Source: Mytilus galloprovincialis
Lineage: Eukaryota
Direction of reading: 5' to 3'
Assembly: GCF_965363235.1 (NCBI RefSeq)
Contig: NC_134847.1
Span: forward strand, 70,038,935-70,102,934
DNA: 64,000 nucleotides
Under the pieces are notes generated by a model. The model worked only from the letters and a program-made list of their open reading frames with translations, made no database searches and was not told the DNA's origin. Positions 3,401-55,241 of the stretch are shown in pieces. Each line of letters begins with the position of its first letter. The first letter of the stretch is position 1. The position numbers and the translations under genes are program-made.

Positions 3401-3954
3401 TCAAGTAGTAATCCTCAAAAGTACTTGTAGGTTATATGCTATTTTTATCAAGTTGATTATAGACACAGAATACATTTTATTATAATATCATTCCCCATTT
3501 CCATTCTCAATTTTATAAAATCTCCTTCCATTATAACACGGGTAGACCAATAATACACCAAAAATGACAAATTAGTAGACAAATTAGTAGAAAAAGCGCA
3601 TGTTTTCATATTGCTTGAAGTGCAATATTCCAATAAAAATAAACTACTCACAAACCACTGATCTCAATATAATCAGCTAAAATACGGCAAGCTTTTTAGA
3701 AAAGCTATTACTTGTTTTTGTTACACAATCATACACATTCAAGTTTTGAAATCGATAGTTGTCATCGTAGAAAAGACAGCTGTTCATATGTGTATGTTAT
3801 CAGAAAATTGATGTGATTCTTATTGTTCTAAAGAAATGTTTGTAAACAAACAGAACGTATAAAAGTAATCGTTAAAACGTCATTGGAATGCGACTGCAAT
3901 ACACATTCTGAGGTCACGCAGGTTCATACAATACTCAGTCCGGCCGTGGGCGGA

Positions 3955-23688: not shown

Positions 23689-24003
23689 GAATATTGTATT
23701 TGTCAACTTTAAATTCAACATATACATCCATAAATTATCTTGGACATCTGGTGTTACACATTCTAACTATGTGGAATGTGAAGTTCAAAAAAATTAACTT
23801 AAGAATATTAAAAGAGAGATTCAATCGAAGTCTAATGCATCTTTGTCACTGTTTGGAAAAAATCTATAGAAAATCTTCCCAGATCAATGGTTTAAACAGT
23901 AGAGTTACATGCATAGATGACAACATACTGATAAAGCAAGTAAACTGTTTGAACGAGGAAGATTTTGAATTGATAAATGGATGTGGAACTGAACACTTTG
24001 AAG
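23689..24003 (+). CDS. Candidate symmetric phase 1-1 exon (315 nt, 105 aa, ILYLSTLNSTYTSINYLGHLVLHILTMWNV...EEDFELINGCGTEHFE). Product unknown.
   Basis: The acceptor is gttttacag|GA and the donor is TTTGAAG|gttagc. The open frame corresponds to the ORF 23694-24008. Confidence 0.2.
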
Positions 24004-27505: not shown

Positions 27506-29136
27506 ATGAATGAATTTATGTTTGCAGATGTTTTATCAGAATTACCTGATAGTCTTGTGAAAGAGATGTTGAAAAAGAAAAAAAATGATGATGTATGTCT
27601 TGATGAAGGAGTTATATCAGAAGTACCTATGTTTCCTGTAATAGATGAAAGTGAAATGGGGACTTCTACAGAAATCAATGATGATGAAAAGGAGAATGAA
27701 AAAAATGATGAAATTGTATTCGAGAGTTTGGACCTTTCGGAAATCACCAATAGTAGTTATTGTAGTTGTTCTATAAATAAACAATATGAAGACAAATATT
27801 TGTACAAAGAAGACCAAATAGTTTACTTGCCTAATACCGTAGAAGCAACAATAAACAAAGACAAAAAGACTGATATCCATAAAGAAATTTCTGTCAACAG
27901 TAGTTCTTTAAAAAGCTCTAAGGTAAATGAAATGTATGATTCTTCGGCTTTGTCCATGATTGACTTACCACCTTTGTCAATGGATGACTTTGAAGAAAAA
28001 CAAGACGGTAGTTTCACTAAGAATGGTAGTTTTTTACGGTTGTGTACTGAAACATCTATCAACAGGGTTTCAGAGGTAGACACTTATGTTTCACATGTAG
28101 GTCATTGCACAGGTCACTATGAGGATAATTCTATCAGAGAAAACAAGGTATGGTGGGTTCCTAATTATCAAATCATACCAATTACAAAGAATGATGCGGT
28201 ATACAGTTCTGATAAATTATCACAAGCTTTTGACAGTAACAAGAGTGAAAAAAGCAACATTTCAACTATAAGTTCCGGATGCTGTAGTATAATCAGTAAT
28301 AAACTGGATGTTCATATTTGTCAATATAAATGTCTATCCTCAAACGTACATTTTGAAGAGTCTGTTTTTTCAAACAAGGGCGTAGTTGATCTACAAAAAA
28401 GGCAAGCAAATAAATCAATAAATAAAAAATATTCTAATGGAGAAGAATATTTACAGAAATGTAGAAAACATCATGATATTGCTAAGATTGTAAAAACCAC
28501 TTTGAAAGAGTTAGCGATGAAAAGGGTAACTGAAATAACTTTAACATCAAAATGTAATCGAAAGAAAAAAAAGCGAAGGATATCAAGAAGAAAACTTCGA
28601 CGCATTATATTTTCTAATCGAATTAAATCATCAAGGTCTCTTCAAATACAAGTAAGACCTGTTGAACATTCACCTCAGCTAATAACAACTTCTAGTGAAG
28701 CAAACACTAGTCATCCAAATCACAATGGAACAATTTTGAGTCTACAACAACAAATTTCAGTTCAAAGTGTATTACCAGTTCACAATATGTCAAATTATAT
28801 CAGAACTGATGGGTCATCTGATTTGGTCACCGGGTCATCATTCACAACGCCATCTGTGACATCTTCAAGTTCTTGGACTAGCTACCTCAATAGTTTGTCG
28901 ATGGGATATGAATACAGTGTTGAGAAAAAGATGCAGTACGAATGGCTGAGAGTACAATCTTACCAGAATTTTCCAGCTACCTGCCATGCTAGTCCCTTAC
29001 GTTTAGCTAGAGCTGGTTTCTTCAGTACTGGTATTATTGATGAGGTTTTATGTTTCAGCTGTGGGGTCAAATACAAAAACTGGAAGAAAAAGGATAATCC
29101 TATTGAAGTTCACCATAGAATATCGCCAGATTGTCG
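27506..29136 (+). CDS. IAP-family exon 1. A 544-aa ORF with a long acidic, Ser-rich N-terminal region, a basic NLS-like stretch (KCNRKKKKRRISRRKLRRI) and a C-terminal BIR domain complete through its last zinc-ligand Cys.
   Basis: ..YEWLRVQSYQNFPATCHASPLRLARAGFFSTGIIDEVLCFSCGVKYKNWKKKDNPIEVHHRISPDC matches the BIR signature R.x.T/S-F-x-x-W/F-P...AGF.Y.G..D.V.CF.C-x16-H-x6-C. The ORF ends at the donor TGTCG|gtaaat, phase 2, and TAA follows if the donor is not used. Confidence 0.8.
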
Positions 29137-30178
29137 GTAAATATTTGTTGTAAAATTATTGAAGATGGTTTTTTTTTTAATTTCTGTATTTTACTTATAA
29201 TGAACTTTTATTTTCTACAGAAAAGTTAGGTCTATTTTTATTTAAGACTTATATATATATATATACTTCTTTATGCTCAAATCAAATGCAAAAGGACAGT
29301 ATCCAAAGCTAATTTGGGCATTTTTTGTTTTCCTCATTTTTCATATTTCTTTAAATGTGTTTTGCAATTAATTTTAATTAAGATACAGTCTGGGGTTAAT
29401 TTAGGCATTACTTCAACTTGGAATGTCGTGGAATGTTTTGAAACTTGGAAAGAAGTGGATGTGTCTGCTCACCAAAAACATCTGAATAAATAAGTTTGAT
29501 TTGATTTTCTTTGGAAGTCAGCATAAAACTTTTACATATACACTTGCATCAGCTAGAGAATGCATTCTATAGAACCCCTTATGTTTTTCTGTGTAATGGT
29601 TAACTTTCGTTTTAAATTTTGCTTAATGATCAATATAAACAGTTTCATAATTTTATCACAATCTTAGTTATTTCAATTTGAATGTCAACTAAATTTGGTC
29701 TGTTGAAAAATGTTATGGAGTACTACATTAATAGCAGGTTCTAAAGTACTTTAGATGATATGTTAACTGTATTTTCTGTAAGGCTATCTGGCAGGGCCTA
29801 TTCTTATCTTGACCTGATTTTCCTTTACCATCTCTGGGCTCTTTGACTGCTTCCTTCACCAATAAAAACTACTTGCCACGAAATAGCACAGTAGTTTTTA
29901 AAGTGGCGTTAATAAAACAAAATCAACCAATCATTTATCAGTGATGATGGTAAGTTTTTGCAATTCAAGTATTATAAGACCTTGATCTTCAACATAAAAT
30001 TGATTTATAATTAATAGAACTGCAACGTTTATTTCTTAGTGATCTCTTTAATCACCTTTTGCAGAGCTTAGTTACACAATATGATAATAAATTGGTCCTT
30101 TTGATGATATAGCTTTTTAGTCTCAAGCTTTGCTAAGCAACACATTGTATTTGAATAAAACAATTTTGTTTTTGATAG

Positions 30179-30285
30179 GATGGTAAATGGTAGAGAAACA
30201 ACGAATATCCCAATTATTTCAGTAATCAACAGAGAAGCTGCAGACAATCCTCAGCAAGAGGCAAGCCAAAGACTAGTGATTGATA
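30179..30285 (+). CDS. Candidate IAP exon 2 (107 nt) encoding the post-Cys tail of BIR1 (R-MVNGRETTNIPIISVINREAADNPQQEASQRLVID)
   Basis: Acceptor tttttgatag|G, donor GATA|gtatgt. The entry phase matches the exon 1 donor and the exit phase matches the acceptor at 35990. The peptide resembles the tail of BIR2 (FVRQNKGHRFVEIITKRQAEM) in the same relative position. Confidence 0.4.
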
Positions 30286-32739
30286 GTATGTAATCAAAAA
30301 AAGCAGCTAAGTAATATTTAAATAACAAGAAAAAAATTGTCTGTTTATCAGTTTTAGTGACATTTATGTTTTGAAAGATATCCTAAAAGTTCTTTTATTA
30401 ATAATACAAGTGTGGACACAGATGAGTGTGGATAGTATGTTTGGGTGTTTGATAGTGTCTTATGACAAATAGGAGTTCTATGTTTTCCTATATGGTGTTA
30501 TAAACTGTGTTGCACGATGACAACCAACCTGAGCATTAGGAGTATTGTTTATTTAATATTTATTTTTTATGTTCAAGACGGGCATGAAAGAGACAGTAAT
30601 TACATTAGTTACCAAATGATTATGATAGAATATGTTCCACATCTTTGATTTTGGATACATTTTGCAGCCAGGAGAGCAACGCATAATAGGTTCATTTTTT
30701 CATGTGTTTTTTTTTCTAAATGGGAGATGATATATAGATTTAATAACATGACATAAGTAGCCTGTAATTCAGTGGTTGTCGTTTGTTTGTGTGTTACATA
30801 TTCGCTTTTCGTTTATTTTTTGTACATAAATAAGGCCGTTAGTTTTCTCAATTAAATTGTTTTACATTGTCATTTTGGGGCCTTTTATAGCTGATAATAG
30901 GTATTGGCTTTGCTCATTGTTAATGGCCATATGGTGACCTGTAGTTGTTAATTTCTGTGTCATTTTGGTCTCTCGTGCAGAATTGTCTTATTGGCACTCA
31001 TACCACACCTTTTTTTATATATATTTGCTTACTATTTGTATGGTTCTATTTATATTATTTTGTGGTGGATCATCAGTATCATTAGTAAATGTTTTTGTTA
31101 AATTGTTCCTCAGATTAGAATACATTAATTGGTTTAATTTTTAGTAATGACAATGCCTGGTGCTAGATAATCTAGGAAGTAAACCTTTGTGCTGATTTTT
31201 ATCAATTCTTTGATAATATCTCTTCCAAATCTGGTTGAAGCAAAGAAAAAATTTGACCAATATGACAATGATTTCACCAAAAGAACCTTTGTGAGCATGC
31301 TTCAATGACTTTCAATGTATAACTGCTCCAAAAGTAATCTGATAGAATTTGTCAAGTTGATATTATCAACAGCTACTTAATTAGTCTTAATATGTCTAAA
31401 TATCTAAAAAGTAATAGTATTCAAAAGGTTATGCAAAATAATTCTCTTTTCATTTTTTTTATTATATGGATACAAATATAAGTGATACATGTACCAATAC
31501 AGTATTTGTTGTGGTATGAAAGTGTAGTAATTAACATTTACTGTAACAATGTTAATTCACACAAATTAAGAAATAAACAAATGAATAAAAAATGTTGAAC
31601 ATGTACAATGGAATATAGTTTAAGAAATCGATTATGCCAGATAGGCCTTATAATTTACACTCAGGACCGGGTCATCAGTAGGCAGTACAGATGTATTATA
31701 ACAATCTAGCATCATATTGCTAGTAGCGGGAGAAGCGTTGTCAGGTAAATTTGGTCTTTTTTTTAAATTTTGTCAGTGAACATATTATGTTTGGTTCAAA
31801 TCGAAACAGAATGCTTTTATCTCCTTATTACTTACAATGTACATAGAGGTGATAATTCTTTGACAAATCCTTGTACATGAGAGTTGTCTGTCAAATCTTT
31901 ATTTAACAAAGAATGAATTGCATAACAATGAACTGAGCTCAAAGCAAAATACTTTAATAGTACACTTAGACAAAGAGCTAAATCCAGTGATATACATTGT
32001 ACTACAGGTCCTTCATGAACATCCATCGACCAAAACCATATATCTCAATAACATGCCATACTACATGGTTGGATCAGAAGTCCTGAAAAAAGACATGATT
32101 TTTTTAATCGTATTTATATATATATATAGATTAAAACTTTCTTGTGGTATAATCATTCAGTATCTAGCAACTATCAATTTGCTTCATACACAAACATTCA
32201 AAACTATAAAATGTTATCTAAGATTTGTCAGTGTCTATTTACATTTGTACCATTGTCACTGAATAAGTGATATATGTACAATTATATACATGTAAGACTA
32301 CAATTTTAAAGTACATATATAAGACTAAAACTGACATTCTGTCTTTACTGACAACTTCATTCCCCAAGTCATTTTCAAATCTGACTTCAAGATAAAATAA
32401 GATTCAATATCTACATATACAACCAATGAAAATCAAATACCCCTCTAATAGACTAGCATTGAAATCCCAGTTTTCTAAAATGGTAGCTAGGTGGTGGAAC
32501 CTAAAATTAAAAAAATTGAAACAATATTTCTTAAATATTTCAAATGCATGTACATGTAATAATATAAATTTTCCTAAATTCGCTATATTTTTTTTTTGTC
32601 TTCTGTTCCAGACTGTATATTGACCTCTAGATGTCTTTCAATTACATTCAGTTTGGTGTGGGTTGATGTTTGATTGTTGTACAACCAGATGCTCCGCAGG
32701 GTCCAGCTTTATACACAGCAGAGGTCGAACACGGATCAG

Positions 32740-33260
32740 TTGGGGAACCCCAAGAATTCAATTTTTGAAGAAATCTAATAAAGTTCAGTTTTGAACCCTT
32801 TATACCTTAATGACGTAGACCAATTTAAAAATAAATAAATATCAAGATTCTAAATACACGGTTAGATTCAGCATTTCAAGGAACACCAATAATTAATTTT
32901 TTAATGAAATCAAACAAAGTTTAATTTTGAACCCTTTTGGCCTCCATTTCCTACACTGTTGGGACCAAAACTTCCAAAATCAATTCCAACCTTCCTTTTC
33001 AGGTTATTAACCTTGTGTTTAAATGTCATTGATTTCTATTCATTTGCAGTAAAGTTATTGTGCGAAAACCAAGAAAAATGCTTATTCGGGCCCTTTTTTA
33101 GCCCGTAATTCCTAAACTATTGGGATCCAGCCCCCAATATCAATACCGACCTTTCTTTTGTGGTATTGAACCTCCTGTTTTAAATTTTTAAAAATCCATT
33201 CACTAAAACTAAAGTTATTGTCTGGCAACTAAATGCGTCTTCGGACGAAGAGACGACGAC
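32740..33260. repeat. Diverged ~170-bp tandem repeats, 3-4 units
   Basis: ttgaaccc(t)tttggcc..cc...ctattgggacc..aatatcaat.ccaacctt.cttt recurs at 32925-33090 and 33095-33260, with partial units upstream. Confidence 0.5.
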
Positions 33261-35989
33261 AACATACAATGTAATACCATTATAAAAAAAATTGTTGTCT
33301 TATAAAAATTGTCACTTGACCAACAGAAAAACCTTACATTTTGTGTACGTCCAATGCATTATTGGACTTGATTTAAGCAAATGACCCTTAGATTCAAGTC
33401 CCTAATATCACTTACTATTGTCAGCGGACCAGATAATCTATCCCACTTCATACAACAATCCTGTTTCCATTGTGGCATCAGTTATTTTGTATTGTGAAGT
33501 CAAAATTTTACAGCAACCTGGGTGATGTCCAGTCATGGCAGACAAATAGCAAAAAGATGTTTAGGAAAACATGACCTAAAACCTCCTTCATATAAGACAC
33601 AAATACATGGAAACCGAATCTTGCTGCTTTAAAATAAGGGTAAAAAGATGAAGTCTTTTTAACTTAAATAAAGGGTGGGGGGTCATTACCATAAGAACAA
33701 CTTTTCTAAAAGATGATTCCACATATATTCATTGTATTTTCAATGAATTATAAATATTGAAGTGTATCTCAGGCATCTGAGAAAAGACTATTGAATTGAA
33801 TCGGTACATCTATACATTTTTGTTCAGGGTCAATCGACATCAATTTGTTGGCCTCTCTAATAGACGTCCAATTTTTAGCTTCTCGAATTGACGTCAGGTT
33901 TATGGCCATATGAAAAGATCCAAACGCCGAGATATTTGGCCTGACATGCTGCATTACATATGGAAATGTCCAAAACAAATTAACAACACTGCAAATTGGG
34001 ACTGAAAAGATTTATACATGTTATACCAACTGAAACTTCGACTGTCTGAGAGAGATGTAAAGACAGTTCTAGGTTAATATGTTCACAACAAATGAAAACT
34101 TTAAATTTGTTGAAAAATATCTAACGAAGTCCAAATTATAATACTCTCAAAAAAGTTAGCTTTACATCTTTATTTTGTCCATTGTTGAAGACTGATTGCT
34201 GCCCTCTATGTGTCCTATATGTCGTTTTGTTTTCTTTGTCATTGGGTCCTGATTGACATATACTCGCATGTAATTTATCAATGTGAATATAAATGAAATT
34301 CGTTAACGTAGAACGACCTTACCCCCTCCCCGTCCTTTTCTAGATAACAATAAGGATGGGGTGGGGGTGTACCTTCGAGTGTATCTCCTTATTTCTTGAT
34401 AGTACTACTGTGATAGTACTATCTACTGTGATAGTAGAGTTTGTTATATCTTTACAACGTCATTACTAGAATTTCAAACTTCTATGACTATACATGTACA
34501 TGTATATATTCGTTTTGTTATTGGTAAATTCGATATGGCAGTATGGTATTTGCGGAATTCCAACGTAAATGCCACGAGTCAATTGAGATATAAAGTATCA
34601 TAAAATTGAGCTGTGTTCATTAAGAAACACATACAAATATACGTTTATCATACAACTCAAAATGTAAACAACCCCTAAAATACAATGTTATATGGAATCG
34701 TCCAACATACATTTATCATACGACTCGAAATGTAAACAACCCCTAAAATACAATGTTATAGAGAATCGTCCATAGCAGATGAAAGACATAGAATTCACGA
34801 ATACACGTCCAAATAATTATGACGTCTTGGAAGGCTATTTCTTCCTGTCGAAGTAAGGCGTCAAAGAAAAAAAATATAATAGCCTTTCAAGATGTCATAA
34901 TTATTTGGACTATCAGTTGGTATGACTGACATTAGATGAAATAAAAATAGATATGTCAGCTAATAAAATATTCAATAGTTTTTTGTTGGTTGAAATGTCC
35001 TGAAATGTGATGGGTTTATGCAGCACATGTATCCCTTTACCAGTTTACTGGCTTCAGTTTGAAAAATAGACTACAGTAGAGACTAAATGGGGACTAAATG
35101 TGTACAAACCAGACATCCAACTATGTTGTAGAAAATGTGATCATCAATTTATCAAAAATATATACACAGAGAACAATATATTTCACAATACATATGCATT
35201 AATCCAAATTTACATCCATTCGTACGGTCTCAATAGAAGAATTTCCCGCGGAAATATCATGTGATATAAACATGGAATTTTCCACACCGATACAGGTGAA
35301 ATACGTAGAATAACAATTGTGGACACAGCAATGAGATCAGATATAAGACCCTCATGAGCTCGGTGTAAAGTAAAAAAAATGTAAAAATCAATTATTAAAT
35401 AAATTTGTTCGATTAACCTTGAAGTGAAGACTAATAAAAATTTGCGTGTATAGAGTGAGCCCCCTAAATTAAATAATACTGTGTTCTTGACGACTTCCCA
35501 CCGCGATGATCGATAGAAAAGATATTTTACTATATAGTATGTTAAATAATAAAAAAATGAACCTTATACTTTCAGACACGATTTTAAGAGAAAACATTCA
35601 ATTCTCTTTTATATATTTTTACATATTTCAGACTATTAATCTTTCAGATAACAAATATCGTGCAAAGTTAGTAATCTCATAGCAACAGTCATAGGAATAC
35701 ATAATCTTTTGTTTTTGCTTAATAGATAATACAAATTATAGATAATACAAATTGTCTGATAGTATTATGTTTTTGTAGTCAAAATCGAATTTAATGATTA
35801 TGTTAACAAATAATTAATTAATAATAAAATTCAAATTAAGCTTCAGACTGAAGACAGATTTAACTATTTGGTTAAATTGAATTATTTCTTTTATTTCCTG
35901 CAATTTTACCTATTATTACTTCAACAAATAAAACTAACTTCCTTGATATAATTCTTATTCTTACTTTGATTTAGATCTCCTGATATCAG

Positions 35990-36531
35990 GAATACATCAA
36001 AATGAAGATGTTAGCATTCAGACAACTGAAGGAGCCACAAACAGATCATTGACAAGAGAGGACATACAAATCTCCAATGATGCAGACACTACTTCTCAGT
36101 CAGTAAATCGAACACAGCAACCTCATATAGTTCACCATGCATTGAGACCATCAGTAGTTGACAGAAACCATTCTGTATTAGATGGAGAACAGAACAGACC
36201 TGCACACAGAGACATTGGTGAGGATTTGGGTATAACATTAGAAAGACCAATGTATCCAGCTTATGCTCAACTGAGTGTTAGGGTCCGTACATTCCAGGGC
36301 TGGCCTGGATACTTAGATCAGGCCCCTAGAGATATGGCACTGGCAGGATTCTTCTATGCTGGCTACAATGACTATTGTAGATGCTTCTTTTGTGGAGGAG
36401 GCTTACGTGACTGGGATGCTGGCGATGATCCTTGGGTAGAACATGCAAGATGGTTTTCTAAGTGTTCATTTGTTAGACAAAACAAGGGCCATAGATTTGT
36501 GGAAATAATTACAAAGAGACAGGCTGAAATG
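35990..36531 (+). CDS. IAP exon (module A, copy 1), 542 nt, with an intact BIR domain
   Basis: Acceptor ctcctgatatcag|GA, phase 1. Donor GCTGAAATG|gtaataac, phase 0. The ORF 36049-36549 lies within it. ..RVRTFQGWPGYLDQAPRDMALAGFFYAGYNDYCRCFFCGGGLRDWDAGDDPWVEHARWFSKCSFV has C-x2-C-x16-H-x6-C all present. Confidence 0.8.
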
Positions 36532-38791
36532 GTAATAACAATAAATTAAATCTAATCATAAAAGGTGATACTTTTATCCCACATTGAACATGAAATATGC
36601 ATCATGTTTTTTATTTAATTCCAAACTTGGGAATTCAGTCTTTTTCAGCAAAATTTAATAAAAACAGTACCTATTTCGTGTAATCGATTCCTCCATCAGA
36701 TTTCAACCCTATACATTGAACCTTCACACATATATTGCACAAGTTTTGAAGTTTTGTAGTTTTTATGGAATTGTTTGAGTGTTGCTATATTTTTCTGAAT
36801 GTAAGAAAATAGTCATATTTCTGCAAAGTCTACAAATCAAAATGGTACCAATTGTGTATAACAGAATGATTGCATTTATTTTATATTATTGTAGCTGTGC
36901 ATTTCTATTTTGTAATTATTTGATCAAGTAAGATGAGCTGGTTCATAGCATTCAACAGTAATGTCATTATTACATGTTTGTGTCACAAAATGACTGAATG
37001 AAATAGCTGAACAAATATCAATGTGACAACATTTACAGAAAATGAGTTCATAAAGGAAAAAAAAGAAGAAGAAAAATGATATGATTGATTTGCATTATTC
37101 ACTGTGAGGGTTAACAGTTGCTTTAACATTTAAAAAATGTTATCGGGCCTTAATATATTTCAAGTTATTTAATTTGTCATTGGTTATCTTCTTTTACAAT
37201 TTAAAGTACAAAGTTATTTCCCCTCAACTTTGCAAAATTTGTGTTGGAACAACATTATTTTTGTAGCAAAGTTAATTTTTTATTCAAATCGTGAGCTTGA
37301 AAAAAAAAATTTGTCTAAGTTTTCAACATGAACCAAAGCGCTTTGAAAATACATAAATATTTGGAATGTAACTTGCGGTCATGATGGTTTCACTGAAACT
37401 TTTATGTCTGAGAAATGCAGGCTATCATTTTGGTTAAACGAAAGACTGACTTATCTTTAAAAGAGCTTATAGTGTACTCTTATAAAGCGATTCCCATTGC
37501 CTCACATTGGGGCTTTGAAAGATATCCATTTATGATGAGATTGTGACCTTTATTTTTTAATATGTATGCTCTTTTTTCCGTTTGAATGGTTTTACACTAG
37601 TCATTTTTTGAGCCCCTTTGAAGCTTGCTGTTCGTGTGAGCCAATGCTCCATGTTGAAAACTGTACTTTGACCTATAATGGTTTACTTTTACAAATTGTG
37701 ACTTGAGCAACATGAGCAACACGACGAGCGCCACGTGTGGATCACCTGAAATCCTCCATAGTTTTTGGTAGGGTCCATGTTGTTGTTGTACCCCTATTTG
37801 TGACAGTTTGTTCACTCATCATTGTCAATTTAAGGGAAATTGATGCGACTGTCGTACAAGTGGTTTATTTAGGTGTTATACCACCATTTATTTCCCCTAT
37901 TAGTCTTTGTCTCCCCTTATTTAACTGGTGTATATGCTTTACTATCCACGTAACCTCAACTATACACAATATTCTATAGGAAACCCAAATAAAAACAATA
38001 ATGGTGTTGTGAAATACCCAAGACAAATGTTAATGAAACAGAATTGTTTTACTGCAATAAAATATAAGGATTAGTTACCTACAACTGTCAAATTAAAGGG
38101 AATATTTTTTTACCTATGTTCGTATAAAACCGGATGTGACGTACCATGCTTTAGTGGTATTACACCTTTGGCGCTATACAACCAGATTCAATCCACCATC
38201 TTCTACATTTGAAAATGTATGTCAGGTATGATAGTTGTTGTCCATTCGTTTGATATATTTTATCATTTGATTTTGAAATTTGATGAGGGACTTTCCGTTT
38301 TGAATTTTCCTCGGAGTTCAGTATTGTTGTGATTTTATATTTTGGATGGAAAGTTGTCTCATTGGACATTTTGAAAAATTAATAACATCCACCATTGTTA
38401 TAGCAAAACATAGAATTTTGGGTCTAACAAATTATAAAAGCAATTAATTTGTTTAAGCATTTATTTTTATGATGAATATGATATCTCGAAGAAATAAGTT
38501 TAAATAAACTTTTGAAAAGAGAAAAGGCCTAACCTCTCCATTTGACAAGTGACAATCCATTGAAAAATATAGTTTATGTCACTTTGATTAATACTTTTCA
38601 AATACTTAGGGAAAACACTAAAACAATATCCATCTGCTAATTATTATCTCCCATGAAACTGGTGGATGTATCGTTCCTCGTACAGTCAGAATGTTGGCAG
38701 GCGACAAGTTTTAATCATAATGTGACTACCAGAATATGAAGTCTTACAGGTTCAATATTGATATATTTAAAACTATCATTGTCAATTTCAG

Positions 38792-38918
38792 GAGGCATCT
38801 AATAATTCATCAGATATTACTGAGAATCACACAGCAGTGTCAAATTATGGCGCAATCGAAGATAGAATCTACATAAACTCAGAAGAAACAACACCAACAC
38901 CAATGACCACTCAATCAG
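38792..38918 (+). CDS. IAP linker exon (module B, copy 1), 127 nt: EASNNSSDITENHTAVSNYGAIEDRIYINSEETTPTPMTTQS
   Basis: Acceptor tgtcaatttcag|GAG, phase 0. Donor CAATCAG|gtagat, exits with 1 base. Identical copy at 42653-42779. The diverged but ORF-preserving copy at 45677-45803 supports coding status. Confidence 0.6.
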
Positions 38919-39636
38919 GTAGATTACTAAATAACCCATTTTGTTGTAACAAATAAACAATAAATGTCATGGGTAAGTTCTACAAATTAAATAAGCAAGA
39001 AGCAATCATGGGCTATTAAGAATTCCACTGTGAAATCCCTGTGTTTGATTGGTGTTGAATGGGAACGACATTTTGCCTTTCAACAGGCCACCTACAGACC
39101 ACTCAAAGTGTTCTTGGGTCAGCACATTGAAACCGACGGGAGCTGGTTGTAATTTATAAAATATTGAAAGAGAGAAGGAAAAAAAAAGTTCACATATGAA
39201 AATGAATTCATCATACAAATGAAATGACAAGCGATTTCACCCTTAGAGCAATGGTATATATTTGATCCCACAGAGGAAAGAAATGCATTGTGTTACCAAA
39301 ATATATTCTCTTGAATAAATTACACATGTGTGTCAGCACAGTAGTTTATTTGATGATATTGAACATGTTTTAATTCTTGCAATTGTTCCTTCATGTAATG
39401 TTCTTTTTTACAATCAGCATCCTAAAACGTAATTGTCTAGAGTGTTGAAATATTGTCAAACACGTGTTGCAGTGGTAACCTCTATATGTCATGCTAGTAT
39501 ATAGACGTAAATAAAGTCGGATAAAAACTAATAAAAATGTATACAACTTGTATACAAGTATAGGTTCTGTTAACAATTACTCAATTTTAACTCTAAATTT
39601 AAGATTTCCTGCAATTTACAATACATCAAAATGAAG

Positions 39637-40016
39637 ATGTAAGTATTCAGACAACTGAAGGAGCCATAAACAGATCATTCACTAGAGAAGACATACAAAT
39701 CTCCAATGATGCAGACACTACTTCTCAGTCATTAAATCGAACACAGCAACCTCATGTAGTTCACCATGCAATGAGACCATCAGTAGTTGACAGAAACCGT
39801 TCTGTTTTAGATGGAGAACAGAACAGAACTGAAGATAAAAGCAAGGCAGAGGATTTGGGTATCAGTTTAGAAACACCAAAATGTCAAGATTATGCTCAGC
39901 TGAATGACAGGGTCAGTACATTTCAATGTTGGCCTGGATATTTAGACCAGGCACCAAGGTTTTTTTTATATACAGGATACAATGATCATAAAGGCGATAC
40001 TTTTATATCATATCAA
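39637..40016 (+). pseudogene. Degenerate BIR-like exon (module A*, copy 2). It keeps RVSTFQCWPGYLDQAPR..FFLYTGYND but lacks the CxxC/His/Cys zinc ligands. An open frame runs to a GTATGT donor, so it could be a pseudo-exon or an alternative exon.
   Basis: Relative to copy 1 it has a 15-bp in-frame deletion (DMALA). After YND, ~100 bp are replaced by ~330 bp that includes atcataaaggcgatacttttat, which resembles the intron just 3' of exon A. The candidate acceptor GAAG|AT and donor TATCAA|gtatgt keep phases 1 and 0. The 3' BIR remnant at 40299-40396 is left in an incompatible phase (gctgaatg|gt). Confidence 0.5.
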
Positions 40017-42652
40017 GTATGTTGAAAGATGCCTAATGTTGTTTTTTTTAAATGACCAATATTTTGAATCAAATGAAATTACACATCAGAGTTTAAAAAA
40101 AACTTAAAAAATACATATTAACCAAATATCATTCGTACAAGGATTCTACACTTGTATGAGAGTTTTAAAAAAGCAAGGTTAAATGTCTTTGTTTAAATTA
40201 ATTCTAAAGCAGTTTCATCTGCAGCTGCTGGTAATGGAGGTTTAAGTTGTATAAAATTGACTAAAATGTCAAATGTGTCCAAGTTTCTTTCCTTGGGTAG
40301 AACATGCAAGATGGTTTTCAAAATGTCCATTTGTAAGACAAAACAGAGGTCATAGATTTGTGGAAACAATTACAAAGAGACAGGCTGAATGGTAATAACA
40401 ATAAATTAAATCTAATCATAAAAGGTGATACTTTTATCCCACATTGAGCATGAAATATGCATCATGTTTTTTTTTATTTCCAAACTTGGGAATTCAGTCT
40501 TTTTCAGCAAAATTTAATAAAAACAGTACCTATTTCGTGTAATCGATTCCTCCATCAGATTTCAACCCTATACATTGAACCTTCACACATATATTGGACA
40601 AGTTTTGAAGTTTTGTAGTTTTTTATGGAATTGTTTGAGAGTTGCTATATTTTTCTGAATGTAAGAAAATAGTCATATTTCTGCAAAGTCTATAAATCAA
40701 AATGGTACCAATTGTGTACAAAAGAATGATTGCATTTATTTTATATTATTGAAGCTGTGCATTTCTATTTTGTAATTATTTGATCAAGTAAGATGATCTG
40801 GTTCATAGCATTCAACAGTAATTTCATTATTACATGTTTGTGTCACAAAATGACTGAATGAAATAGCTGAACAAATATCAATGTGACAACATTTACAGAA
40901 AATGAGTTCATAAAGGAAAAAAAAAGAAGAAGAAAAATGATATGATTGATTTGCATTATTCACTGTGAGGGTTAACAGTTGCTTTAACATTTAAAAAATG
41001 TTATCGGGCCTTAATATATTTCAAGTTATTTAATTTGTCATTGGTTATCTTCTTTTACAATTTAAAGTACAAAGTTATTTCCCCTCAACTTTGCAAAATT
41101 TGTGTTGGAACAACATTATTTTTGTAGCAAAGTTAATTTTTTATTCAAATCGTGAGCTTGAAAAAAAAATTTTGTCTAAGTTTTCAACATGAACCAAAGC
41201 GCTTTGAAAATACATAAATATTTGGAATGTAACTTGCGGTCATGATGGTTTCACTGAAACTTTTATGTCTGAGAAATGCAGGCTATCATTTTGGTTAAAC
41301 GAAAGACTGACTTATCTTTAAAAGAGCTTATAGTGTACTCTTATAAAGCGATTCCCATTGCCTCACATTGGGGCTTTGAAAGATATCCATTTATGATGAG
41401 ATTGTGACCTTTATTTTTTAATATGTATGCTCTTTTTTCCGTTTGAATGGTTTTACACTAGTCATTTTTTGAGCCCCTTTGAAGCTTGCTGTTCGTGTGA
41501 GCCAATGCTCCATGTTGAAAACTGTACTTTGACCTATAATGGTTTACTTTTACAAATTGTGACTTGAGCAACATGAGCAACACGACGAGCGCCACGTGTG
41601 GATCACCTGAAATCCTCCATAGTTTTTGGTAGGGTCCATGTTGTTGTTGTACCCCTATTTGTGACAGTTTGTTCACTCATCATTGTCAATTTAAGGGAAA
41701 TTGATGCGACTGTCGTACAAGTGGTTTATTTAGGTGTTATACCACCATTTATTTCCCCTATTAGTCTTTGTCTCCCCTTATTTAACTGGTGTATATGCTT
41801 TACTATCCACGTAACCTCAACTATACACAATATTCTATAGGAAACCCAAATAAAAACAATAATGGTGTTGTGAAATACCCAAGACAAATGTTAATGAAAC
41901 AGAAATGTTTTACTGCAATAAAATATAAGGATTAGTTACCTACAACTGTCAAATTAAAGGGAATATTTTATTACCTATGTTCGTATAAAACCGGATGTGA
42001 CGTACCATGCTTTAGTGGTATTACACCTTTGGCGCTATACAACCAGATTCAATCCACCATCTTCTACATTTGAAAATGTATGTCAGGTATGATAGTTGTT
42101 GTCCATTCGTTTGATATATTTTATCATTTGATTTTGAAATTTGATGAGGGACTTTCCGTTTTGAATTTTCCTCGGAGTTCAGTATTGTTGTGATTTTATA
42201 TTTTGGATTGAAAGTTGTCTCATTGGACATTTTGAAAAATTAATAACATCCACCATTGTTATAGCAAAACATAGAATTTTGGGTCTAACAAATTATAAAA
42301 GCAATTAATTTGTTTAAGCATTTATTTTTATGATGAATATGATATCTCGAAGAAATAAGTTTAAATAAACTTTTGAACAGAGAAAAGGCCTAACCTCTCC
42401 ATTTGACAAGTGACAATCCATTGAAAAATAAAGTTTATGTCACTTTGATTAATACTTTTCAAATACTTAGGGAAAACACTAAAACAATATCCATCTGCTA
42501 ATTGTTATCTCCCATGAAACTGGTGGATGTATCGTTCCTCGTACAGTCAGAATGTTGGCAGGCGACAAGTTTTAATCATAATGTGACTACCAGAATATGA
42601 AGTCTTACAGGTTCAATATTGATATATTTAAAACTATCATTGTCAATTTCAG

Positions 42653-42779
42653 GAGGCATCTAATAATTCATCAGATATTACTGAGAATCACACAGCAGTG
42701 TCAAATTATAGCGCAATCGAAGATAGAATCTACATAAACTCAGAAGAAACAACACCAACACCAATGACCACTCAATCAG
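42653..42779 (+). CDS. Linker exon B, copy 2, identical to 38792-38918
   Basis: Lies at offset 3861 from copy 1 with the same splice sites. Confidence 0.4.
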
Positions 42780-43497
42780 GTAGATTACTAAATAACCCAT
42801 TTTGTTGTAACAAATAAACAATAAATGTCATGGGTAAGTTCTACAAATTAAATAAGCAAGAAGCAATCATGGGCTATTAAGAATTCCACTGTGAAATCCC
42901 TGTGTTTGATTGGTGTTGAATGGGAAACGACATTTTGCCTTTCAACAGGCCACCTACAGACCAGTTAAAGTGTTCTTGGGTCAGCACATTGAAACCGACG
43001 GGATCTGGTTGTAATTTATAAAATATTGAAAGAGAGAAGGAAAAAAAAAGTTCACATATGAAAATGAATTCATCATACAAATAAAATGACAAGCGATTTC
43101 ACCCTTAGAGCAATGGTATATATTTGATCCCACAGAGGAAAGAAATGCATTGTGTTACCAAAATATATTCTCTTGAATAAATTACACATGTGTGTCAGCA
43201 CAGTAGTTTATTTGATGATATTGAACATGTTTTAATTCTTGCAATTGTTCCTTCATGTAGTGTTCTTTTTACAATCAGCATCCTAAAACGTAATTGTCTA
43301 GAGTGTTGAATTATCGTCAAACACGTGTTGCAGTGGTAACCTCTATATGTCATGCTAGTATATAGACGTAAATAAAGTCGGATAAAAACTAATAAAAATG
43401 TATACAACTTGTACACAAGTATAGGTTCTGTTAACAATTACTCAATTTTAACTCTAAATTTAAGATTTCCTGCAATTAACAATACATCAAAATGAAG

Positions 43498-43877
43498 ATG
43501 TAAGTATTCAGACAACTGAAGGAGCCATAAACAGATCATTCACTAGAGAAGACATACAAATCTCCAATGATGCAGACACTACTTCTCAGTCATTAAATCG
43601 AACACAGCAACCTCATGTAGTTCACCATGCAATGAGACCATCAGTAGTTGACAGAAACCGTTCTGTTTTAGATGGAGAACAGAACAGAACTGAAGATAAA
43701 AGCAAGGCAGAGGATTTGGGTATCAGTTTAGAAACACCAAAATGTCAAGATTATGCTCAGCTGAATGACAGGGTCAGTACATTTCAATGTTGGCCTGGAT
43801 ATTTAGACCAGGCACCAAGGTTTTTTTTATATACAGGATACAATGATCATAAAGGCGATACTTTTATATCATGTTAA
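43498..43877 (+). pseudogene. Degenerate BIR-like exon (module A*, copy 3). It has the same lesion as copy 2, plus an in-frame TAA just before the former donor (..TFISC*).
   Basis: Copy 2 reads tat caa|gtatgt, and here it reads tgt taa gtatgt. This is the ORF 43632-43877. Confidence 0.5.
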
Positions 43878-45676
43878 GTATGTTGAAAGATGCCTAATGT
43901 TGTTTTTTTTAAATGACCAATATTTTGAATCAAATGAAATTACACATCAGAGTTTAAAAAAAACTTAAAAAATACATATTAACCAAATATCATTCGTACA
44001 AGGATTCTACACTTGTATGAGAGTTTTAAAAAAGCAAGGTTAAATGTCTTTGTTTAAATTAATTCTAAAGCAGTTTCATCTGCAGCTGATGATAATGGAG
44101 GTTTAAGTTGTATAAAATTGACTAAAATGTCAAATGTGTCCAAGTTTCTTTCCTTGCTAGCAGATGGTTTGGTGGTAAGGCAGTGGGTACTTATATTCCA
44201 TTATTCCTACAGTTTTTATCCCTGAGATTTGAAACGTTACATATGTATTGCACTTATGATGAAGTTGTGTACCTGTAATTATTATTAATTGTTTGGGGAA
44301 TTTTACTTCATATTCTCAGAATTGAGAGCTTAGTAACTTTCAGCAAAATTAACAAACAAATGGTAACCAGTTTTGTGTAATCAACTTCTCTCATAGTTTT
44401 TAATGCGGCAAAATATATTCTAAATTATTGAATATGTAATAAATTATCTTTTTTTTTACAATTTAAATTACTTAGTAATGACCTCTAAATTATGCCAATT
44501 TTTTGTTGGAACAAATTTTTTTTTTAGCAATGTAGCTAAGCTAATTGTTTATCCAATCCTTGATCTTGAAAAGGTTTTCTAAATGAACAAAAGTGCTTAC
44601 AATTATATACAAATTTGAATTGCAACTTGTGATCATAGGTTTCCTTGAGCTTTAAGGTATTTGAAATACCCACAATTGAAGTGCATTGAAGTCATCAGCC
44701 AACAAAGGCTGACTTTAGAATTTATCGTGTACTCCATAACACGTTTTCTTTTGCCTCACGTTGGGGCTGTTAAAATATATATGATCAAGATTGATAGTCT
44801 AATTATAGCAAAAATGAACATTGTCCTTTAATGATATACTTAGCTCAGGTTTTGGGATTTGTGTGGAATGTTCGGACTCCTTAGAGTTTTTTCATACGAT
44901 ACAAGGTAAAATATTTTGCCCCATAACACCGATTTATTATTTCATATAAGACTTAATAGCTCATAAAAGGTCATCTAACAAAATTTCAGCACATTCTTGA
45001 TTTTCTTTCTTTTTATTTGAGACCCAAATAATACCAATACAAATGAAAGGTAAAAGTCCAAGTCAGCCTTTTCCCGTGATATTGTATACATCACATATCT
45101 CGAAAAGGAGTTCCATGACCTATCAATATTTTTAGCTTATTTTGATCCTTAACTAATACTCTTCTAGCTTAAAGCATCAATTTTAAATTCTTAATTTATT
45201 TAATTTTACCAAACTACATCCTCAATTTTCGATAATGAAAGTTAATTGTGTTCTTTTTGTATTAAAATCATGAGTTGTCAATGTAATCATGTCATTACAC
45301 CAAACAACCTGCTGCAAACATTATATGACATAAGTAGTTTGTTTGAAGCATCATTTTGAAAAAAAAATCAATAATTACCACTATTGTAATTTAAAAGTGT
45401 AAATTTGAGTCTAACAAATTTATAACAGCAAAGAAAGTTGTTAACCATTTATTTTATGATGAATACGATAAGTGGATAACTAACCTTTAAAAAGAGAGAT
45501 GACACAACCTCTCCATTTGTTATGTGACAATCCATTCAAAATAGAAACTGGAGGATGTATTGTTCATGATACAGTCAGAATCTTGTCAGGTGCATACACA
45601 TTTTAAACACAATTGCCAACAGAAGCTATTAGCAGTTCCATATTGACATGATAAGAAATATCATTGTTTATTTCAG

Positions 45677-45803
45677 CAAGCACCTAATTACTCATCAGAT
45701 ATTTCTGAGAACCAAGCAGCAGTGTCAAGTTATAGTGAAATAGAAGAAAGAACCCAAATAAACTCACAAGAAACATCACCAACAACAATGGTCACTCAAT
45801 CAG
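45677..45803 (+). CDS. Linker exon B, copy 3: QAPNYSSDISENQAAVSSYSEIEERTQINSQETSPTTMVTQS. It is ~25% diverged, yet the same length (127 nt) with frame and both splice sites conserved.
   Basis: Acceptor ttgtttatttcag|CAA, donor CAATCAG|gtaggt. No stop codon. Confidence 0.5.
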
Positions 45804-47559
45804 GTAGGTTGTAATATCGTATCATCTTTTTGTGGTAACAAATAACAATCGGTGTCATGGGTAGGTTCTACAAATAAAGTTATCAGGAACAAATAATGGG
45901 CTATTTAGATTGACACTGTTGAATTTGGTGTGTTTGATTAATGTTGAATAGGAACAGACATTTTGCTTTCCAACATGCCTCAAACAGTGCACTCAAAGTG
46001 TTAATAAGATGACATGGGGTCACCACATTGAAATTTCCATACACGTTATAAAAAAGAAGATGTGGTAGGATTGCCAATTAGACAACTGTCCACAAGAGAC
46101 CGCTTTTAACATTAATATTTAGACGGGAGCTAGCTGCATATTTATGTGTATATTGTATTGATAAACAAACATGAAGAAAGAAAGTTCACATAAACATAAT
46201 ATAAAACATAATTCATAACACAGAAGAAATGACAAGCGATTTCACCATTAGAGCAATTGAATACATTGGATTAAACAGAGGAATGAAGTGCAGTGTTTTA
46301 CCAAATTATACTATACTATTGAATAAATTACACATATATGTGTCTGTACAGAAGTTTTATATGTTGATGATATTGAGCATGTTTTAATTCTTGACATTTT
46401 CCTTCAAGTTCAGTTTTTTTCACAATGAGCATATTAAAAAATCTGAAATAAATAAATTGCAATTCTTATGGTCTGTTGTTTTGTGGTTTAGAAGGCACTT
46501 TCAAAGGATTGTGGCTTTTTTTTTTTATCTTTCACTTAAATAGTATATAAAGGAATAATTCACAACATGTCTCTATTAACACTGCATATTAATCAAATTT
46601 AATGAGAATATTTCTATAGTTATGCTGGGGCAAAAGAAAATTTGAGATATATATCCATAGAGTAACAACATTACAAGTTCCATGAAATTTGGTGGTTGTA
46701 CTCTCCTGTATAGCAGGTTATGCAAATAGTATTTTTTAAAGTAATAAGCCTGTACGTTAATAGCTAAATGAAAGTTAAAGTAAAATAATATCTTTAAAAT
46801 TTATCTCGACAATTATGCTTTCTCAGCAACCCTTAAGTTAAACTGTATTATGACTGCGATTTTCTGTATAGGAAACCTAAAAATTGAGGCAACAGAAATT
46901 TTGTCGGTGTCGTCGGCGGCGTCCACAAATATTCACTTTGTGGTTAAAGTTTTTGAAATTTTAATAACTTTCTTGAATATCCTGGATTTCTACCAAACTT
47001 GATCAGAAGCTTGTTTATGTTCATAAGATAGTATCCAGGAGTAAATTTTGTAAAATAAAATTCTGTTTTTTCCGTATTTTACTTATAAATGGACTTAGTT
47101 CTTTTCTGCCAGGAAACATTACATTAACTCTGTGGTTAAAGTTTTTAAAATCTTAATAACTTTCTTAAACTATCCTGGAATTGTACGAAACTTGTCCAGA
47201 AGCTTGTTTATAATCAGAAGATAGTATCCAGAAGTTAATTAGGTAAAAATAAAATTCCGTTTTTCCCGTATTTTCTTACTTTCATACAGTCTGCAGTCAA
47301 AGTTTTTCAAACATTTTAAGATTCATAAACTAACCTTGATTTTTACCAAACTTGGACAGAAGCTTCTGACATTCAAAAGATAGTATTAGTATTAAGAGGA
47401 AAAAATTTATTGATTTTTTTCATAATTTTTGTTGAGTATGTGATTAGCAGCAAAAGTAAGCCAGATACTGGGTTCCGCGGAACCCTTACAAATTTTTTAA
47501 CATATTTCTCCGGTGCTTATTAAGTAGAACAAATTCACACTTAAGATATCACATGTAAA

Positions 47560-52860: not shown

Positions 52861-53051
52861 AAGGCAGTTCACTCAAAATGCAAAAAACGAAACAGGGCAA
52901 ATGCAGGACCTGTGATGCAAATAATGTACCTGTAGCATTTTTACCATGTGGACATATATACTGCTGTAACGACTGTACATCTGCAATGCTAAAATGTCCT
53001 ATGTGCAAAGTTGATATTAAACAAGCATTAAAAAGGTACTTCCATACTTGA
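52861..53051 (+). CDS. IAP terminal exon encoding a C3HC4 RING finger (..KCRTCDANNVPVAFLPCGHIYCCNDCTSAMLKCPMCKVDIKQALKRYFHT*)
   Basis: Acceptor cttgtgttttgtag|AA, phase 1. The spacing C-x2-C-x11-C-x-H-x3-C-x2-C-x6-C-x2-C and the short C-terminal tail match the IAP RING (cf. C.ICMD....VF.PCGHL..C..CA.....CP.CR..I...). Stop at 53049-53051. Confidence 0.8.
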
Positions 53052-54990: not shown

Positions 54991-55241
54991 GAAAAGTTGA
55001 AGTTTCATCACAGAGAAGTTTGCAACAAGTGGAGGAAATGCAAAATTATATTTGCCCATCTGAGGAATATACCAATGTACAGAATACACAACAAAGTGTC
55101 TTGAGCAATTCTGAGCCATCATATGAGATTCAACAGTTACTTGGGGAGTTTCATCTAGGCAACGCTCTTCCAATAACACCAGTGCATGGTCAGCTGTCAG
55201 ATGATGGTTCATCAGTTCAAAGAATGTGTGATGGTAATACA
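54991..55241 (+). CDS. Candidate exon of an unknown downstream gene (..RKVEVSSQRSLQQVEEMQNYICPSEEYTNVQNTQQSVLSNSEPSYEIQQLLGEFHLGNALPITPVHGQLSDDGSSVQRMCDG)
   Basis: Acceptor ctcttttag|A and donor GTGATG|gtaata bracket the ORF 55020-55322. It lies after the IAP stop, so it belongs to a different transcript or the UTR. Weak. Confidence 0.2.

Follow-up and report, generated by a model that had tools for sequence, protein, structure and literature searches.

In human XIAP and cIAP, BIR1, BIR2 and half of BIR3 are contained in one exon (PMC7831173), and bilaterian XIAP/DIAP2-like genes have their N-terminal BIRs on a single exon (PMC13159474). The BIRs of the hard clam are typically split into parts of about 80 bp and 120 bp (Song et al. 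2021, PMC7831173), and intron loss via retroposed copies is common in bivalve IAPs (PMC7831173, PMC8917759). This usual bivalve split is in phase 1, at AGFFYx|G, ~27 residues into the domain and upstream of the first zinc ligand. Here, we analyzed LOC143049571, an IAP gene of Mytilus galloprovincialis with two BIR domains and a RING, which lies in a 64,000-nt stretch of contig NC_134847.1 (the window, to which all positions refer unless another sequence is named; G+C of ~31%, AT-rich animal DNA). Its BIR1 is of the same domain type as BIR1 of vertebrate XIAP, cIAP and NAIP and that of lophotrochozoan XIAP-like IAPs, which share a tail of the form C-x-[FYM]-[LIV]-N/Q-G-x4-N-[IV]-P/G. Like the usual split, the intron found in this domain is spliceosomal and interrupts a BIR in a bivalve IAP, but unlike it, it is in phase 2 and lies after the last Cys. 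The sequence at 29137-30178 is very probably a constitutive phase-2 spliceosomal intron of the GT-AG type, explained most simply by a single insertion in a mussel subfamily of IAPs. The feature itself is an ordinary, already annotated and almost certainly constitutive intron, and all that sets it apart is that its place in the BIR domain is non-standard and restricted to one lineage.

The window's own 544-residue reading frame (P0019) was recovered by exhaustive HMMER search, and the 90% cluster of this frame includes the RefSeq protein XP_076079288.1 (P0152), which is named 'uncharacterized protein LOC143049571 [Mytilus galloprovincialis]'. The spliced translation of 27528-29136 + 30179-30285 + 35975-36531 is an exact substring of XP_076079288.1, and the product of the first of these exons is identical to its residues 79-615. 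Both junctions (29136|30179 and 30285|35975) are identical in the RefSeq protein and in our reading, with no difference as far as this feature is concerned; since they are already in RefSeq, no change to the annotation is needed. PF00653 (BIR) matches were obtained for both domains, with E values of 2.5e-19 for BIR1 plus tail and 3.6e-22 for BIR2, and a pattern search recovered both BIR zinc motifs (CX2CX16HX6C ligands), which qualifies the product as an IAP. A PF13920 match (E 4.1e-09, residues 1195-1238 of P0152) identifies a C3HC4 RING, which is not C-terminal in the RefSeq model of LOC143049571.

The zinc ligands of BIR1 are arranged as CFSC-x16-H-x6-C, the last Cys being encoded by the TGT codon at 29133-29135. 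The exon ends with CG at 29136 and the donor gtaaat starts at 29137, so that read-through gives CGG TAA. At the other end of the intron, the acceptor tttttgatag|G, with a pyrimidine-rich tract upstream, sets the start of a small exon at 30179. This exon completes the Arg codon and its product, (R)MVNGRETTNIPIISVINREAADNPQQEASQRLVID, corresponds to the C-terminal tail of BIR1 and the start of the inter-BIR linker. A GT donor, an AG acceptor with a pyrimidine tract, and a frame that is restored by splicing are therefore all present at 29137-30178, as for a U2-type GT-AG intron. The Pfam BIR match to BIR1 spans about 28949-29136 and reaches profile position 67/70 without the small exon and 69/70 with it; on this 70-position model, the intron falls at position 67, a single codon beyond the last zinc ligand. 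A first-pass annotation of the window had placed an intron in phase 2 directly behind the fourth zinc ligand of BIR1, had described a donor CG|gtaaat followed by an in-frame TAA, and had stated that BIR2 carries no intron at the corresponding point. Its coordinates, splice sites, phase and peptide all proved correct, as did the first of these statements, the sequence (CGG TAA) bears out the second, and the third is confirmed by the finding that the whole of BIR2, including its tail (FVRQNKGHRFVEIITKRQAEM), lies on the same exon (35975-36531). The label 'exon 1' given to the BIR1 exon needs correction, as in the RefSeq model this exon is preceded by another coding exon at 23769-24003 and is thus the second one that codes.

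The 107-nt exon is real, as shown by four independent lines: frame, annotation, paralogue transcript, and peptide homology. The BIR1 exon, the 107 nt and the BIR2 exon form one open frame, whereas a direct join of BIR1 to BIR2 causes a frameshift and a stop after ~10 codons. As the length of the small exon is 3n+2, its inclusion is needed for translation of BIR2 and the RING. All annotated proteins found for the window gene and for a paralogue contain this exon, including both isoforms of M. edulis. Over the BIR1 region, this paralogue shares 72% identity with the window gene; it corresponds to M. edulis XP_071133598.1 and XP_071133600.1, which have the same intron position and the 107-nt exon; the M. 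edulis models also have a further 600-800 N-terminal residues. In a genomic Logan contig of the paralogue (L002), CCG|gtaaatatttg is followed by a 107-nt exon (3521-3627) and then by the BIR2 exon. Another Logan contig (L008, 1,816 nt) is without all four L002 introns, contains one BIR-BIR-RING frame of 557 residues, and shows the spliced junction TGCCG|GATGGTC, from which the homologous intron has been removed. The small exon has the same length in the paralogue and in the window gene, and its first ~50 nt are far more conserved than the flanking intron. For the window gene itself, we infer that the intron is used constitutively.

Peptide homology was assessed using a tail matrix of 13 columns, built from 28 tails of homologues without the intron, none of which belongs to the Mytilus subfamily. 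When all six frames of the 64-kb window were scanned (about 128,000 positions), the matrix scored 26.8 bits at 30177 (RMVNGRETTNIPI), and the runner-up in the window scored 9.6 bits. Bivalve, abalone and Lingula BIR-BIR-RING proteins have a post-Cys BIR1 tail with the pattern x-[FYLM]-[LIV]-N-G-x4-N-[IV]-P-[IL], which the window tail fits as R-M-V-N-G-x4-N-I-P-I. The alignment score of the window tail was reached by 0/5000 and 5/5000 shuffles against the Mercenaria and Ylistrum tails, respectively, and across the tails of BIR1 homologues without the intron, 0 to 75 of 5000 shuffles scored as high. In addition, NAIP BIR1 in PDB entries aligns through ...CrmvnGrettNI. A word-index protein search with spliced BIR1 plus tail returned a single match, which is metagenomic. 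That the BIR1 tail is on its own 107-nt exon ~1 kb downstream, as first proposed, is thus borne out by the RefSeq junctions, the frame, and the tail matrix. The small-exon peptide had also been said to resemble the BIR2 tail (FVRQNKGHRFVEIITKRQAE). This resemblance is not significant (BLASTP found no alignment, and 1116/5000 shuffles equaled or exceeded the observed local score), and we rejected it as support for the small exon. Alignment of the BIR tails with mollusc BIRs, which had been suggested as a check, revealed homology to BIR1-type tails and no significant similarity to the BIR2 tail. The real homology of the small exon is to the BIR1-type tail x[FYM][LIV]NGxxxxN[IV]PI of other IAPs.

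An intron at the same position and in the same phase was found in three sequences: the window gene, its paralogue (L002), and a 1.2-kb metagenomic contig of hydrothermal-vent origin (L001), which has TGC AG|gtaatt at the same codon position. The protein encoded by the vent contig is identical to the Mytilus subfamily at 67/97 residues, compared with 34-43 of about 90 for other bivalve homologues, which suggests that it comes from a vent mussel. Its second exon was not found within the 860 nt that follow the donor. The 52 nt that directly precede the BIR1 frame in this contig (1-52) match, as an exact reverse complement, the 52 nt that follow the donor (359-410). Such a match probably reflects a hairpin or a chimera created in assembly, and the 5' context of the contig is therefore unreliable.

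Seven homologue loci were fetched as genomic DNA and the proteins were mapped back. The BIR1 Cys and the tail are uninterrupted on one exon in 7/7 of these other bivalve homologues (Table 1), as they are in XIAP and cIAP according to the literature, whereas in the mussel subfamily they are split. The earlier proposal of 'intron gain in one BIR unit' is hence supported, with the intron in three related mussel-type sequences and absent from seven bivalve homologues. This presence in 3 and absence in 7, with an unchanged coding length, is the distribution of a lineage-specific gain, although orthology and tree support are weak. In a neighbour-joining tree of BIR1 plus BIR2, which is indicative only (182 alignment columns, no support values), the intron-bearing pair is nested in a pteriomorph cluster and flanked by intron-free genes. 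In the same comparison of loci (L003, L007), only Ylistrum BIR2 and Sinanodonta BIR2 were found to carry the usual AGFFYx|G intron, and BIR2 of the window gene, of Saccostrea, and of the M. coruscus paralogue is without it. The window gene therefore combines loss of the usual BIR2 intron with an unusual new BIR1 intron.

Table 1. Features of LOC143049571 in the window (nucleotide positions) and extent of the exon that carries BIR1 and its tail in seven other bivalve homologues (residues).
Feature	Position	Strand	Remarks
Upstream coding exon, first in the RefSeq model	23769-24003	+	joined at 27528, inside the 544-residue frame
Coding exon: long N-terminal region and BIR1	27528-29136	+	ends in phase 2 (..TGT CG)
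GT-AG intron, 1,042 nt, phase 2	29137-30178	+	donor CG|gtaaatatttg, acceptor ttttgtttttgatag|G
107-nt exon: BIR1 tail and linker start	30179-30285	+	ends in phase 1, ATA|gtatgt
Inter-BIR linker intron, phase 1	30286-35974	+	junction 30285|35975
Exon: linker remainder and whole BIR2 with helical tail	35975-36531	+	starts tttgatttag|AT; ends in phase 0, ATG|gtaata
RING exon	52861-53051	+	read-through ends ...ALKRYFHT, stop 53049-53051; RefSeq splices at 53035
Ylistrum balloti P0100	residues 50-594		in one exon
Mercenaria mercenaria P0113	residues 1-233		in one exon
Solemya velum P0081	residues 1-443		in one exon
Potamilus streckersoni P0086	residues 1-268		in one exon
Sinanodonta woodiana P0131	residues 1-362		in one exon
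Saccostrea echinata P0174	residues 1-294		in one exon
Mytilus coruscus distant paralogue P0178	residues 132-461		in one exon

The TAA directly after the donor lends itself to other explanations. The first-pass annotation had raised a stop-versus-splice choice, i.e. intron retention or intronic polyadenylation leading to a truncated protein that ends in ...HHRISPDCR, without BIR2 and RING, beside the full-length form. The stop is in frame, five AATAAA hexamers lie in 29137-30178, and unspliced Logan contigs (L009, L002), from runs that could be RNA or DNA, cover both exon and intron. However, an exon that ends in phase 2 before GTAA will in every case read xxG TAA, so that the in-frame TAA is a side effect of the donor and not a regulated stop. 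Indeed, read-through of the eight mapped donors of the gene leads to a stop after 1, 1, 2, 5, 12, 37, 12 and 34 codons, and a stop within 5 codons was counted at 5/8 donors of LOC143049571, with two more within 12. Since AATAAA occurs at 2.1 per kb over the whole window, the five intronic copies are no signal. The unspliced contigs are collinear with the genome over several successive introns and therefore look like genomic DNA; with their run type not established, we rejected them as evidence of intron retention. In addition, the truncated product would be without the BIR1 tail, which is conserved from brachiopods to vertebrates, the 107-nt exon is in every annotated protein found for the gene and its paralogue, and neither a truncated annotated product nor a truncated transcript was found. 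We therefore consider a stop-versus-splice choice unsupported rather than disproved, and very unlikely. A bolder version, in which a recent mussel-restricted insertion in the BIR fold allows regulated retention to yield a decoy or dominant-negative IAP, appears highly improbable to us. If it were true, the protein made on retention would have its long N-terminal region followed by BIR1 without the tail, and neither BIR2 nor RING; the IAP family is known for stress-responsive diversification. Prokaryote-style gene callers also gave a 544-residue frame ending at the TAA (P0019), as would be expected if the 107-nt exon were an artefact of gene prediction and BIR1 belonged to a separate gene ending at 29140. 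This is scarcely conceivable, considering that the equivalent exons are joined in the paralogue transcript and that the 107-nt exon both encodes the conserved BIR1 tail and restores the frame exactly.

How the intron came to be restricted to mussel-type sequences is a separate question, and we infer its direction, which would be gain and not repeated loss. A single gain in the lineage of the mussel subfamily is the most economical reading. Several points weigh against a constitutive intron gained in this way. No spliced transcript of the window gene was found, its Logan contig (L009) being collinear with the genome, and a word-index protein search with the segment from the junction to BIR2 gave no match, so that the searches yielded no independent protein derived from a transcript of this gene. 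The assignment of the vent contig to a mussel is based on sequence similarity only, the intron-free homologues are not established as orthologues in an IAP family that is greatly expanded, and the tree is weak for the reasons given above. Finally, the mechanism of insertion has left no trace: there are no repeats, no target-site duplication is kept in the paralogue, and no transposon copy is present in the window. The intron might alternatively be ancestral to BIR1 domains of this type and have been lost precisely and independently elsewhere, without any gain in mussels. Retroposition-driven intron loss is common in bivalve IAPs (PMC7831173, PMC8917759), the usual BIR2 intron has itself been lost from the window gene and from other genes, and the orthology of the compared genes is not settled, all of which would accommodate such a history. 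However, at least four or five exact losses would be needed (Solemya, unionids, Mercenaria, scallop, oyster, and the other Mytilus paralogue), and human XIAP and cIAP BIR1, as well as bilaterian N-terminal BIRs, are also without such an intron. Moreover, Ylistrum has no BIR1 intron even though its linker and BIR2 introns are kept. The Ylistrum gene resembles the window gene in its long N-terminal region, in a linker intron that is also in phase 1 and at a comparable site, and in an intron in phase 0 downstream of the BIR2 helix; as these neighbouring introns are kept, it is not a retrocopy. An ancestral intron that was repeatedly lost is therefore unlikely.

A gain in mussels would have meant that the intron was inserted once, and precisely, into an exon that had been continuous, in the lineage leading to one mussel IAP subfamily, without addition or removal of residues at the site. 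As the spacing of the tail motif C-x-[FM]-[LV]-N-G-x4-N-[IV]-P-I is unchanged, the insertion would have been exact. The flanking exon sequence is near a proto-splice site, with CAG|G in the vent contig and NCG|G in the two Mytilus genes. The three introns (in the window, L002 and L001) show no mutual similarity beyond ~12 nt at the donor. The window intron bears no signature of a repeat or transposon and there is no other copy of it in the 64-kb window; the only repeats found were short, weak inverted or direct ones, with no convincing terminal repeats. We also considered the 7-mer GGTAAAT, which occurs at 29136, i.e. at the donor, and at 30182, 4 nt into the 107-nt exon, as a possible footprint of duplication. 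This was rejected, as the paralogue has GGTCAAT, and the repeat was treated as chance or simply as Val-Asn codons.

The real stop-or-splice question of LOC143049571 is at the RING exon, not at the BIR1 donor. At the end of this exon (53030-53051), read-through of AAAAG|gtacttccatacttga yields the usual C-terminus of an IAP, ...CKVDIKQALKRYFHT, followed by a stop, and this window C-terminus aligns with ...CRVYIKGTVKTYLA in the paralogue. RefSeq instead splices from 53035 to exons that start at 54992, which adds about 365 residues without a Pfam domain. To give this C-terminal extension, the model may have fused LOC143049571 to a gene downstream.

Three tandem copies of the BIR2 exon unit lie in 35970-45805, starting at 35970, 39599 and 43460, with a period of about 3,861 nt. 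In sampled 300-nt segments, the identity between copies 2 and 3 is 98-99%, and that of their exon segments to copy 1 is 87%. In both copies 2 and 3, the BIR core is disrupted (..QAPRFFLYTGYNDHKGDTF..). The RefSeq model nevertheless includes their 5' halves (39604-39911 and 43465-43772) as well as small exons after them (42653-42779 and one from 45677), which gives rise to an internal protein repeat of about 145 residues. These partly degenerate duplicated exons, as well as the C-terminal extension, may be artefacts of the model.

Among the BIR-RING matches, two are annotated as bacterial (P0076, P0240), from Candidatus Endonucleobacter bathymodioli, an associate of deep-sea mussels, and from an Endozoicomonas. 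In P0076, the tail of BIR1 (AYMTGEDSGNIPIH) belongs to the same type as that of the mussel. We presume that such bacterial-annotated BIR-RING genes may be IAP genes acquired from the host.

In AT-rich genomes, an in-frame stop right after a donor is uninformative on isoforms. The intron that splits BIR1 from its tail in LOC143049571 represents a clean candidate for lineage-specific intron gain in a bivalve, and is a possible marker for the mussel IAP subfamily.

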